Shown here piece after piece: positions 9,001-12,000 of a stretch of 13,677 nt of DNA. The position numbers were made by a program. Each line of letters opens with the position of its first letter. Position 1 is the first letter of the stretch. This stretch comes from a virus (Duplodnaviria; Heunggongvirae; Uroviricota; Caudoviricetes): IMG/VR virus record IMGVR_UViG_2703718850_000012, positions 1-13,677 of that record, one strand, 5' to 3'.

Positions 9001-12000
9001 AGTAGTTCAAGCGGGGAACATAACCACGTCTCAGGCCGGATAATTTCGCCTGACTGCTTATCCACTTTGGGCGTTACCCAGAAAACACCATCGGCGCGGC
9101 TTTCAACGCGGGGCTTTAATTCATCATCGCCATGGTTTTCTGTGATTTTTTTCTTTAAGGGCAACACCAGACTTTCCCCACGCTCGTATTCGTCTTTCAG
9201 TCGGGCAAGCTGTGGTGTCCAGTCCTCCAGTAGTTCGCCGTTCTCGTCACAAAAACTGACTTCCTTAACACCAGCTACTGCGAGCAGGGTTTCAATCTGT
9301 AGCGCCTGTTTGCCATCCAGCTTTCCGGCACGTCTGACCATGACGCGTAACCGGCCATCATCCACAATACGCAGGTTTTCCAGATTACCCAGGTCACGCC
9401 GTCCGATATAAACGGGCGGTATTTTGTCGCCGCGCTTTCCGGCTTCTCCACCCTGCCTGTAATGTTCTGCGTGGCTGTATGCGTCATCCCCCACAAAAAT
9501 TACTGCTTCCTCACCTTTATCTTTCGGCAATAGTTTTACGTTCGGTGCCAGTTTCATTTTTTACCCCTGAATCCGTTAAGCATTTTTCTTATGGCCTGAA
9601 TATTTACCCGTGCCTTCTCTTTGCTGGTGGGCTGGTTACGCGGCGCAGTCTGTACCAGGGAAAAATCACGCCGGAACTGATAAACAGGCATCACGCAGTC
9701 ATAGCCGTACCCATCACGGCGGTAAGTAACGCACCGTCCCGCCACGTGTTTAATCGTTACTGTGCCGCCGTAGTTATCCCGGAAAATATCGCCGGGGCGG
9801 ATTTCAGGCCGAGGGAGGCCGCTGGCAGTAAAGCCAGAATTTTTCTGTTTCATGGTTTTTATTCTCCGGTGTGATGCGCTTTATTATTCTCGTGAATTGC
9901 CATCACCGTATTTAATTCGTTAATTACTGGCGTTAATAATGTGTGCACGGCAGAAAACATCATGGGATATGATTCATCGCCATTTTCCGGCACTTCCATT
10001 AACTTAAGTAATAATGCCTCCATTTCCTTTGCGCGGATTAATGCATTCTCAGAATGAATAAGAACATCAAAAGGTATTTTATGCATCACACAGTTTCTCC
10101 CTGATTCTTTTAGTGTCCTCATTGAGGATGTCTGTAGCTTTTGTCAGTGAGTTTTTGGTAATTATTTTTATTGTTTTAAATTTTCTTTTGTCGTACTCCG
10201 ACTGTGATTTCCTCTCCATGATCTCTACCATGCAATTTATATCCACAAGCGCATGTATCAGTACTTTCAATGCTTCGCCTGCTGCGTCCGGCGTGTTTTT
10301 ATTGCACATGGCGCACCTCCTGACGAATACGGGCGGCGAATACCATCACGCAGCCATCAGGAGATTGCTGGCGGGCTTCCTGTTCGCTGGTGGCCTCGAT
10401 GTGAATCACGCGCGGTTGTGCCGTGCTCAGGGCGATAAAACGCCAGATGTATTTATTCAGGTTGTGCGAGTCCCGCCCTTGCGGGTGTGTGGTATGATTT
10501 AACATAGCTACCTCGATACTTCTGCTATCGTTGGTGGTTAGAAGCCCCGTTACTGCTCCAACAGTGCGGGGTTTCGTCGTTTCTGTGCCTTGCATCAATA
10601 AGGTGTAAGACACAATGTAAAATAAAAGTGTCTTACACGTCAACCCTTCAAAATAATTTTTTTTCGTGTATATTGTCTTACACCAAAAACATAAGGAGTT
10701 AGACATGGCAACAGGTCCAAAGAATGCAAAATCACAATCTGTAACTGCACGTATTGCCCATGAAATTATTGAAGGCATGGAAAAAGTGAAAGAAGAAGGC
10801 GAAAGTACAGGACAGTTTATAAGCGCAGCCATGCGTGGCGAGATCAAACGCCGCCAGCGCCGCCAGGCCAAAGAATCAGAATAAAAACAACCTGCGCCGT
10901 GGTGTGAGGAACTACGGCACATTGCTTTACAGGACAGCACCATGAATGATAACGAGTTAATAAAAACATCATCACCAATAAGAAAGAAACGGCGCAAAAA
11001 TATAGCGCATGAGTCTGAATCAGACAGATTCGCACCATGTGCTTTTGCTCTTGAGAAATTCCTAAAAGAGTACAGGAAAACGCGCCCATTGCAGGTATGG
11101 CAACGTAACGAACAAAAAGGTTGATGTATGACCAGAAAGCAGACAGATAACAAACCATTGCTACCAGAGAATAAATCAGCGGGATTTTTACCGGAAAAAG
11201 TGCTACATGAGCTAAAATTCCGCCAGCGTAAAAAATCCAAAGAAACAGACAAAGAATAACTTATGCACCAAATACTATACTGGCTCGGATCTCTGTTTGT
11301 ATTTGCATTTCTCATGAAATATTGCATTAGCAATGAACCTGCCGACAATGAAAGTACATGCGGGAGTGCTGAAAAAGATATTCCACTTCTCGTATATGAA
11401 AATGAAAGCCCTGTGCACCGCAATTGAGCGAAATTTAATGAATTCACTCTTTGCCCACCAGCCGCAAATGTGGCATTGTTGGCAATGCTCATGCGTTGGG
11501 GATAACGTGTAGCTTGTGTCGAATGGCCACCGTAGCAGGTGGCCTTTGTTTTGCCTGTTATCCGGCAATTGTGGCGCTTCGTCACACGGTTGATATAATT
11601 CCCCTGCACTGATCCATTTTTTTCGCAGCAGGTTAATTGTTCACAAGGGCGCTCCGGCAACGGGGCGCTTTTTGTTATGTTCATTGCGTTACACCTCACA
11701 CCATTACGCAGCCGTTCCGCGCGCTTCTTCCTCGCGTTCTTTCAACCAGGCCAGCACCTCATCTTCATACCAGCCAACACGGCGCAGACCGATTTTGAAG
11801 CCTTTCGGGAATTTTCCGGCGTTGATCATGTCCTGTAGCGAACTGTCTGCCTTGATGCGCAGAATATTTTTTACTTCCTGACGGGTAAGAATTTTTCTGA
11901 TTACTTCCATCGTGTTTTACCTCGTTAATCCGGCGTATTCCGGTGATAAATACGGTAAAGCAGGGCAGGGCGGGAAAAACAGTACTCACCGTTTTAAAAC

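Follow-up and report, generated by a model that had tools for sequence, protein, structure and literature searches.

The window analysed here comprises 13,677 nt of a viral record (IMGVR_UViG_2703718850_000012) and carries, from right to left, an integrase-sized ORF (12436-13677; its E. coli relatives are named integrase), alpA, and a leftward operon in which an Icd-like gene is followed by a 76-aa ORF, an 87-aa ORF, DUF4222 and a DUF927 primase (Table 1). Besides the primase, the island encodes SSB, PerC and a Nu1-like TerS. Among the ORFs scanned, neither tail or lysis families nor homologues of sid, psu or delta were found, and a near search of the phage collection returned as its sole match an unrelated 870-bp stretch of primase. 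The combination of int, a co-oriented alpA and a replication module with a primase, typical of Gram-negative PICIs (elements of about 10-15 kb that lack tail and lysis genes), places the island among them. Its regulatory module is the same as in EcCICFT073, a proven PICI (NC_004431.1, from int at 1377930), in which int, alpA, an opposite-strand YlcI/YnfO gene (C_RS30120), an Icd-like gene, DUF4222 and the primase are present, and three type-B sites (GTGTGGCCCAC) lie within a 199-nt intergenic region.

Table 1. Features of the regulatory region and of the adjoining genes, in window coordinates
Feature	Position	Strand	Remarks
Icd-like protein, 68 aa; first gene of leftward operon, proposed repression target	10299..10505	-	NF033153; no covariation with the operators
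Long open frame, 466 codons from GTG 11699	10299..11699	-	Starts 5 nt past the alpA stop; ends as the Icd-like protein
Predicted cis-antisense RNA	10490..10585	+	Extended -10-like TGgTATGAT 10490-10498; promoter and 3' end at consensus level
Candidate operator site 1	10603..10613		Follows immediately on the leftward -10; relatives keep a site at the same place with respect to P_left
Predicted P_left, Icd-like/replication operon	10614..10643	-	-35 TTGACG 10643-10638, -10 TACATT 10619-10614, spacer 18; consensus scan, hexamer conservation
Candidate operator site 2	10628..10638		Within the leftward promoter spacer; last base shared with the -35
Predicted P_right, RHH gene	10647..10674	+	-35 TTCAAA 10647-10652, -10 TATATT 10669-10674, spacer 16; consensus scan, conservation
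Candidate operator site 3	10673..10683		Begins within the rightward -10 (its final two bases) and takes in the predicted +1
YlcI/YnfO-family RHH protein, 59 aa, proposed repressor	10705..10884	+	Shine-Dalgarno AAGGAG 10692-10697
alpA	11704..11910	-	Pfam PF05930; operator types A, B, C, D and the L080 variant are all accompanied by alleles 96-100% identical to this one

Three 11-bp sites at the predicted divergent promoters

Three copies of an 11-bp motif were located by pattern search between the Icd-like and the RHH gene, as the initial annotation had reported. Site 1 reads GTGTAAGACAC and is inverted relative to the other two, its minus strand reading GTGTCTTACAC; site 2 is GTGTCTTACAC itself, and site 3 is TTGTCTTACAC, with one mismatch. 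Sites 1 and 2 form the perfect inverted repeat described there, with 11-nt arms of 100% complementarity and a 14-nt spacer. Nowhere else in the 13.7-kb window does the motif recur with 0-1 mismatch, and its two occurrences with 2 mismatches (1329 and 1604) are no more than chance would give (2.5 expected). When the 199-nt intergenic region was searched without bias for its highest-scoring triple of 11-mers, exactly sites 1-3 were recovered, with a score of 31 of 33, a value reached in 0 of 1000 dinucleotide-preserving shuffles (mean 24.3, maximum 29), so that the array far exceeds chance. Each 11-mer is a quasi-palindrome of the form GTG(T)-N3-(A)CAC.

The consensus promoter scan predicts two back-to-back promoters under these sites. 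Their hexamers are conserved in relatives, a TTGAC/AG-type -35 adjoining site 2 in 90 of 114 unique regions and a TATAnT hexamer overlapping site 3 in 92 of the 114; the P_right -10 in particular is strongly conserved as TATACT or TATATT. Given the coordinates of the scan, site 3 covers the end of the rightward -10 and the +1 region. This overlap had been noted before, together with the view that the third copy is a half-site; it is instead a full 11-mer (10 of 11 bases). Since the sites lie on core elements of both predicted promoters, their occupancy should repress both.

Covariation of the sites with the ribbon-helix-helix protein

The three-site layout is kept in about 150 related loci from Enterobacterales satellites, with a start-to-start distance of 45 bp between sites 2 and 3 in nearly all of them. 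Within GTG-N5-CAC the inner five bases occur in at least 20 types and change in concert at all three sites, while the outer GTG/CAC is invariant across types, as is Arg16 of the 59-aa protein. Sites 1 and 2 have the same orientation, as direct repeats, in several motif types, B, C and G among them, with position and spacing kept. The comparison shows that the inverted arrangement is particular to the motif type of the window, that site 1 may point either way in relatives, and that each 11-mer is a whole site; the inverted repeat is real, and the unit is the single 11-mer.

Each motif type is paired with its own residues 11-14 of the adjacent YlcI/YnfO-family protein, with an almost one-to-one correspondence between residues 11, 12 and 14 and the five core bases. 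Motif variation follows the predicted beta-strand of this protein and no other neighbouring gene, a pattern consistent with base-specific recognition by alternate residues of an N-terminal strand. The operators and roughly the first 45 RHH codons (about 10540-10840) form a cassette that is exchanged as a unit between satellites and, like the immunity regions of lambdoid phages, exists in many (at least 20) specificity types.

For the protein itself, a strand at about residues 9-18 (KSQSVTARIA), a helix at 19-28 and a second helix at 35-58 with a conserved basic tail are predicted, that is, a strand-helix-helix fold of about 45 residues as in the RHH superfamily (MetJ/Arc/CopG). RHH proteins are obligate dimers whose strands pair into an antiparallel ribbon of two strands; in the monomer model, a single-chain prediction, the strand is extended but unpaired. 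The family motif of RHH proteins is a G-x-S/T/N turn, after which helix 2 touches the phosphate backbone with its N-terminus. Such a turn is present between the helices, with E33, S34 and T35 invariant in 44 family members and G32 the majority consensus. The sequence matches NCBIfam NF041551 (YlcI/YnfO; DUF3950) over residues 9-50 with 67.5 bits against a cut-off of 30, and its homologues are annotated "YlcI/YnfO family protein".

Taken with the conserved layout and the concerted site variation, the predicted fold and the exclusive covariation support both the repressor-operator layout proposed in the initial annotation and its choice of the RHH-like protein as repressor. The three 11-mers are very probably binding sites of this adjacent small protein. 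It is also probable that they are its operators, read in a type-specific manner, through which both divergent promoters are repressed. One RHH dimer would bind per GTG-N5-CAC site, the invariant Arg16 of each strand reading the outer GTG/CAC and residues 11, 12 and 14 the variable inner bases. Occupancy of sites 1 and 2 would switch off P_left and with it the Icd-like, DUF4222, primase, SSB and packaging operon, and occupancy of site 3 would provide autoregulation of P_right.

A probable function is thereby assigned to the uncharacterised YlcI/YnfO (DUF3950) family, for which the literature search returned no published function. YlcI (DLP12) and YnfO (Qin) of E. coli K-12 belong to the same NCBIfam family (DUF3950), and the N-terminus of K-12 YlcI (R-N-I-R-F-P, then helix) follows the same pattern as that of distant satellite members (L179-L183). 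Unlike the satellite genes, ylcI of DLP12 adjoins cos and is divergent from nohD, away from any satellite regulatory region; no three-site array was obvious upstream of it on inspection by eye. The matched strand/operator pairs, at least 20 in number, are a natural series from which an RHH recognition code could be worked out and orthogonal repressor-operator parts could be drawn.

Predicted antisense RNA, the long overlapping frame and a proposed route of induction

The predicted cis-antisense RNA, about 75 nt in length, would start at about 10505, on the Icd-like start codon, and end at about 10580; it is complementary to the Icd-like Shine-Dalgarno sequence (10510-10514). Its region contains an invariant GGTTAGA box (10536-10542), a covarying stem-loop (10541-10575) and a T-rich tail. 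The structure and its assignment to the plus strand are well supported; a reading of the hairpin as a same-strand attenuator or terminator in the leader of the leftward operon was rejected, as G-U pairs and folding energies favour the plus strand. The terminator scan of the window gave no call at the 3' end of the RNA. Neither C4/isrK nor any other meaningful Rfam family was found, whether in the whole window at gathering thresholds or in 10380-10720 at E<=10; matches to mir-3156 and CRISPR-DR are due to chance, arising from the inverted repeat and a coding hairpin. By these models the locus lacks the same-strand C4/CI-type RNA expected of RNA immunity of the P4/P1 type; its structured RNA lies on the opposite strand.

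The long open frame lies antisense to the small ORFs and to the RHH gene, and it also crosses both promoters and all three operators. Of 149 unique loci, nearly all keep a minus-strand frame open across site 2, with a median length of 301 codons; the equivalent in EcCICFT073 has 428 aa. Among 104 unique RHH genes, 103 have an open frame on their antisense strand. Control of the left operon of P4 involves PLL, vis (an AlpA homologue), eta with a nested kil and an internal promoter, PLE, and the CI RNA (summarised in PMC10111431). The window resembles it in the predicted long ORF that directly follows an alpA homologue, has a promoter within it, ends in a small nested gene for cell division or killing, and lies upstream of the primase; in both, translation from upstream is a plausible override of local control. 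P4 immunity depends on the same-strand CI RNA, whereas the window has an opposite-strand RHH gene, protein operators and an opposite-strand structured RNA. That the proposed repressor gene is nested antisense within the long ORF following alpA points to an override of the P4 kind. We infer that on induction AlpA-dependent transcription would proceed from upstream leftward through the long ORF; the transcript, antisense to the RHH gene, would pass over the operators and bypass the RHH block, and would likewise bypass a putative block by the antisense RNA where ribosomes bind the Icd-like message, much as proposed by comparison with PLL and eta of P4.

The position of the sites on both promoters lends plausibility to the suggestion that the region acts as an immunity or induction switch for the island. 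Because AlpA is the published inducer of the homologous EcCICFT073, where it is required and sufficient (PMC6092414), the switch is more likely a lock overridden by AlpA-driven expression than a sensor of helper phage. In work on Gram-negative PICIs only the activator AlpA has been described, and the global repressor was stated to be unclear (PMC6092414). Literature searches on YlcI/YnfO, on RHH proteins with satellites or PICIs, and on EcCICFT073 with repressor found no description of an RHH/operator module; it is present in the prototype EcCICFT073, previously undescribed and unannotated. The conserved 59-aa RHH gene and its three cognate operators are thus a testable candidate for what keeps Gram-negative PICIs silent and bear on what sets their specificity toward one another, and maps showing all genes of these islands as unidirectional overlook a regulatory gene. 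A more far-reaching proposal, which we put forward tentatively, is that the cassette is the missing master repressor, or immunity determinant, of Gram-negative PICIs including EcCICFT073, with at least 20 mutually non-cross-reacting specificities, and forms part of a three-layer lock (RHH protein, antisense RNA and read-through ORF) that would be opened when AlpA-driven convergent transcription and translation from upstream silence the repressor gene by traversing it in antisense.

Related systems and alternative readings

The immI region of P22 contains the RHH repressors Arc and Mnt at the divergent promoters Pant and Pmnt, as well as the sar antisense RNA. The window is alike in its proposed small RHH repressor, in candidate operators over core elements of predicted back-to-back divergent promoters with autoregulation, and in a short predicted antisense RNA that covers the ribosome-binding site at the start of the repressed operon. 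icd is part of the immI region of P1, and the gene that would be repressed first at the present locus is Icd-like. With Stl/Rpr of SaPIs and other Gram-positive PICIs the proposed likeness is that of a satellite repressor at a divergent region which silences a replication and packaging operon until a helper phage is active (PMC6092414), and allelic specificities are many in both. Stl proteins are HTH repressors, larger than the 59-aa RHH protein and relieved by binding of a helper-phage protein (PMC6092414); the window protein, in contrast, is an RHH protein of 59 aa without known anti-repressor, and published induction is via AlpA.

An unlikely alternative to repression for quiescence or immunity is that the RHH protein binds the sites but serves, in the manner of plasmid regulators such as CopG/RNAII or omega, to control copy number or replication once the island has excised. 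CopG of pMV158/pLS1, whose gene lies upstream of rep and shares with it a transcript from the promoter that CopG represses, binds a single 13-bp element, and the omega repressor of pSM19035 binds contiguous 7-bp heptads. In favour of such a role, the replication genes (DUF927 primase, SSB, DUF4222) are under P_left, an RHH protein alongside a putative antisense RNA that lies across the ribosome-binding site of the Icd-like gene follows the logic of CopG/RNAII in pMV158, and the published inducer is AlpA rather than the RHH protein. In the window, however, the RHH gene is not co-transcribed upstream of the replication genes but divergent from them, and its sites, each of 11 bp, are separated by 23-45 bp. 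Repression would moreover first affect an Icd-like cell-division inhibitor, as in phage immunity regions, and many specificity types swapped as cassettes are typical of immunity determinants. Copy control and quiescence are mutually compatible roles for the RHH protein.

That the motifs are sites at which AlpA activates the leftward operon is very improbable. AlpA is a DNA-binding regulator with the inducing role in EcCICFT073 cited above (PMC6092414), and its gene lies 1 kb away, but mosaicism rules it out as the reader of the motif: near-identical AlpA occurs with five different operator types, and loci sharing the operator type of the window have an AlpA of only 35-69% identity or none detected. 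The site positions (-10/+1, spacer) are also unsuited to classical activation.

Little probability attaches likewise to the Icd-like protein or another product of the leftward operon as reader, or to the sites being origin iterons for a primase or initiator. PHROGs does label Icd-like relatives "transcriptional repressor" (phrog_6196, phrog_1743), and repeated 11-mers near replication genes could be iterons. Icd-like genes at least 90% identical nevertheless occur with five motif types (A-E), which excludes the 68-aa protein as reader of the variable core, and type A operators also stand beside unrelated first genes. The primase is ruled out by the same mosaicism, the identity of its N-terminus being unrelated to operator type. 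Against iterons, there are just three copies, on promoter hexamers and at a fixed 45-bp spacing, and the PICI origin is located downstream of pri (PMC10111431).

Least credible of all is that the inverted repeat acts through nucleic-acid structure, as a cruciform, an RNA hairpin or a terminator, and not through protein binding at sites 1 and 2: its perfect arms and 14-nt loop do give it hairpin potential, reflected in the spurious miRNA-precursor match, but the third copy has no pairing partner, the predicted start of P_left falls inside site 1 so that the operon transcript would not contain both arms, and the motif types with direct repeats keep the positions and spacing with no hairpin.

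Three 11-mers at a predicted divergent promoter

The element belongs to the Gram-negative phage-inducible chromosomal islands (PICIs); its genes and sites are listed in the table. The three motif copies that the initial annotation placed at the divergent promoter were confirmed. An unbiased search of the 199-nt intergenic region for the best-scoring set of three 11-mers that resemble one another returned exactly sites 1-3 (score 31/33), and none of 1000 dinucleotide-preserving shuffles scored above 29. Sites 1 and 2 are perfect inverted copies of each other over 11 nt, separated by a spacer of 14 nt. 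No further copy with 0-1 mismatch was found by pattern search in the 13.7-kb window, and the two matches with two mismatches correspond to chance level. The promoters predicted by consensus scan lie back-to-back: site 2 occupies the spacer adjoining the predicted leftward -35, site 1 abuts the predicted leftward -10, and site 3 overlaps the end of the predicted rightward -10 and the +1 region.

Features of the island and its divergent promoter region (window positions)
Feature	Position	Strand or direction	Remarks
PAAR-domain protein	1125-1616	+	cargo, far left
563-aa PAAR / S-type pyocin / colicin-type DNase toxin	1613-3304	+	cargo
82-aa ORF	3306-3554	+	where immunity gene would sit
Lambda Nu1-like small terminase	3816-4400	-
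PerC	5563-5850	-
ProQ/FinO-domain RNA chaperone	5847-6371	-
SSB	6408-6830	-	after primase in gene order
Two small ORFs, DUF4222, 710-aa DUF927 primase		-	in this order leftward after Icd-like gene
Icd-like 68-aa gene	10299-10505	-	NF033153
466-codon open frame	10299-11699	-	starts 5 nt after alpA stop
Cis-antisense RNA, ~75 nt	within 10490-10585	+	predicted; opposite Icd-like 5' UTR, Shine-Dalgarno and start codon
Site 1, GTGTAAGACAC	10603-10613		pattern search; reverse complement of GTGTCTTACAC
P_left, TTGACG-18-TACATT	10643-10614	leftward	consensus scan, prediction only
Site 2, GTGTCTTACAC	10628-10638		pattern search
P_right, TTCAAA-16-TATATT	10647-10674	rightward	consensus scan, prediction only
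Site 3, TTGTCTTACAC	10673-10683		pattern search
59-aa YlcI/YnfO-family gene	10705-10884	+	NF041551
Three small ORFs		+	after YlcI/YnfO-family gene
AlpA-family gene	11704-11910	-	PF05930
80-aa ORF		-	between AlpA-family gene and integrase-sized ORF
Integrase-sized ORF	12436-13677	-

Relatives were collected from IMG/VR using the 59-aa protein as query (80 loci) and from species-representative genomes by family alignment (75 loci; genera include Xenorhabdus, Pectobacterium, Serratia, Yersinia, Proteus, Morganella, Providencia and Gilliamella). At least one satellite marker was present within 3 kb at 64 of the 75 genome loci. When 150-200 nt upstream of the gene were inspected, the three-site layout was present in essentially every locus, and it was also recovered by the unbiased triple search with no prior pattern. 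Sites 2 and 3 are spaced 45 bp start-to-start, almost invariably across types, and site 3 lies ~32 nt ahead of the start codon; sites 1 and 2 are either 22-26 or 33-37 bp apart, in discrete classes. The fixed 45 bp suggests a geometric constraint, e.g. cooperative binding or looping between sites 2 and 3. Across loci L002-L183 the distance between sites 2 and 3 was fixed in almost all types, while site 1 varied in spacing class and orientation. Of 114 unique regions, 90 have a TTGAC/AG-type -35 abutting site 2 and 92 have a TATAnT hexamer that overlaps site 3; these conserved hexamers are read as putative promoter elements.

Among 5426 complete E. coli genomes, 1645 had matches to the 701 bp around the motif (best full-length match ~91% identity); the best match to the whole window covered 73% at 96.8% identity.

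Variation of the putative operator core and of the ribbon-helix-helix (RHH) protein

The form common to the loci is nTG-N5-CAn, with the inner five bases varying by locus group. Cores include TCTTA (window), TGGCC, TCAGC, TCGGA, AAATA, AAACA, GAtTC, AATCG, AACAC, AATGC, GCACC, CTTAG, TGCTC and AATAG, and the most distant members have 12-mer variants of the site. There were 22 core types among 100 unique combinations, and all three sites of one locus agree in core. Site 1 is inverted relative to site 2 in the window's type and in AAATA and direct in TGGCC, TCAGC and TCGGA, which argues that the single 11-mer is the functional unit. The operator layout proposed from the inverted repeat is supported and refined: the repeat is real in the window, but its inversion is type-dependent. 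The alternative that sites 1 and 2 form a hairpin or cruciform was rejected because several types have direct repeats.

The available tests placed the 59-aa protein in the RHH superfamily and the YlcI/YnfO family. Its residues 9-18 have their own sequence in each core type, for example KSQSVTARIA with TCTTA, KSQALKARVP with TGGCC, KSKKLEARVP with TCAGC, KSKRIDARVP with TCGGA, KSQMTTVRIP with AAATA, KSQKLQARAP with GAtTC, KSQQLNARFP with AATCG and KSLQVSVRLP with AACAC. Arg16 is invariant, as are the outer GTG/CAC of the sites, and the triplet of residues 11, 12 and 14 corresponds almost one-to-one to the core. At loci L027 and L080, where the proteins are 71-73% identical overall, S12/T14 and TCTTA-type sites are both kept. 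Adjusted mutual information with the core was highest for residues 11-15 (0.76), followed by helix 1 (0.62), helix 2 (0.53) and the tail (0.16), against permutation maxima of 0.10-0.14. In a motif-first search, the exact inverted repeat was found in 27 IMG/VR contigs, all with an adjoining gene for a KSQS[VL]TARI protein.

The neighbouring genes are mosaic relative to operator type, and their products (Icd-like, AlpA, primase) were excluded as motif readers. Loci whose Icd-like gene is at least 90% identical to the window's have five operator types between them, those whose AlpA gene is 96-100% identical have types A, B, C and D and the L080 variant, and primase identity was unrelated to operator type. 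Between the window and loci L033 and L031, identity is 85-100% in the Icd-like gene and 95-100% in alpA and falls to 55-70% only across ~10540-10840, which indicates that the operators and ~the first 45 codons are exchanged as one cassette. Linkage must contribute to the operator/protein covariation; it does not explain why three separated sites change in concert, why the sequence between them stays constant, or why R16 and GTG/CAC are invariant.

The C-terminal basic tail GEIKRRQRRKAKE (residues 46-55, window 10840-10869) is nearly invariant in protein, with ~85% DNA identity, in all specificity types. The tail may serve in oligomerisation, backbone contact or partner binding; alternatively, the overlapping antisense ORF may constrain it. 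A terminator-like hairpin (10896-10918, +) lies 3' of the RHH gene. It is followed by a conserved 60-aa basic ORF (10942-11124, +; phrog_21027), which adjoins the RHH gene in about half of the relatives and also in EcCICFT073, the prototype Gram-negative PICI, and which could encode a partner of the RHH protein.

Predicted switch, antisense RNA and overlapping frame

The module is probably an RHH repressor-operator switch in an unusual context. Each 11-mer would be bound by one RHH dimer: the inner bases would be read by residues 11, 12 and 14, and the outer G's by R16 of each strand. About 6 bp separate the G at position 3 from that at position 9, by estimate roughly the distance expected between two R16 at antiparallel ribbon ends. 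Occupancy of sites 1 and 2 would repress P_left and that of site 3 would autoregulate P_right, repression rather than activation being favoured by the site positions on -35, -10 and +1.

Between the start codon of the Icd-like gene and site 1, an invariant GGTTAGA box is followed by a stem-loop (10541-10575). All 81 unique relatives have the more stable form of the stem on the + strand, compensatory double changes occur in 10 of 14 stem pairs, and ~50 G-U cells would be mismatches if the other strand were transcribed. Paired cells amounted to 96.9% (38-49% in slid registers), and the observed score was reached by 0/500 shuffles. Upstream, at constant spacing, lies a conserved extended -10-like TGnTAnnnT (window 10490-10498, TGgTATGAT), also in loci with an unrelated first leftward gene. 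The covarying + strand stem and this element together predict a cis-antisense RNA over the Icd-like Shine-Dalgarno and start codon, whose promoter and 3' end are likewise predictions; the terminator scan called no terminator for it, and its structure had no Rfam match. The ProQ/FinO protein encoded beside this putative system may be relevant.

The 466-codon frame is antisense to the small ORFs and the RHH gene and spans the operators and the two predicted promoters; its C-terminal part is, in frame, the Icd-like protein. Nearly all of 149 unique loci have a frame open across site 2 (median 301 codons), and of 104 unique RHH genes 103 are free of stops in the antisense frame. When identical nucleotide differences are compared, the RHH frame has fewer amino-acid changes (0.22 per nucleotide change) than the antisense frame (0.31). 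The middle part of the long frame looks like filler.

The RHH protein and antisense RNA may keep the internal promoter and first gene silent, and transcription driven from upstream by AlpA, the published inducer of EcCICFT073, coupled to long-ORF translation, would override both and, being convergent with the RHH gene, would interfere with that gene as well.

Known systems and other bearers of the module

Functionally, the module comes closest to P22 immI (Arc/Mnt and sar RNA), pMV158 CopG with RNA II, the omega repressor repeats, which work in either orientation, the P4 left-operon architecture and, as a functional counterpart, SaPI Stl. The window module differs from a CopG-type operon in organisation, and Rfam searches of the window returned no C4/isrK-type RNA as in P4/P1-type RNA immunity. 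The long ORF/Icd-like arrangement resembles the eta/kil nested genes downstream of vis in P4 (PMC10111431).

Exactly the same RHH/operator module is present in EcCICFT073 (NC_004431.1 1377930-1386000), whose 199-nt intergenic region has two copies of GTGTGGCCCAC and one of CTGTCCCCCAC. This island carries int, alpA followed by a 428-aa long ORF, an oppositely oriented YlcI/YnfO gene (C_RS30120) with a small ORF, the Icd-like C_RS30125, DUF4222, primase, SSB, PerC and a capsid gene. C_RS30120 and C_RS30125 are late-added locus tags, so the published 'unidirectional' maps were probably drawn without the RHH and Icd-like genes. In the literature searched, no description was found of this RHH protein, of YlcI/YnfO function or of these operators, and the module offers a clear route into an open question on Gram-negative PICIs.

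The family namesake, K-12 ylcI (NC_000913.3 580251-581379, DLP12), has an RHH-like N-terminus RNIRFPNQMIEQ and adjoins the cos site, divergent from nohD. Its presence in DLP12 indicates that helper-type lambdoid prophages carry distant homologues of the putative satellite repressor, and cross-talk between the two is conceivable. The window's cargo (1125-3554, +) looks like a bacteriocin or T6SS-effector-like toxin aboard a satellite. In E. coli Evo1 (NZ_CP101915.1 2571013-2593713), the same regulatory module occurs in a capsid-forming island (HK97 capsid, protease, portal, connectors, HNH, TerS, TerL) that is placed within the gene for the large terminase subunit of a prophage and is thus helper-embedded.
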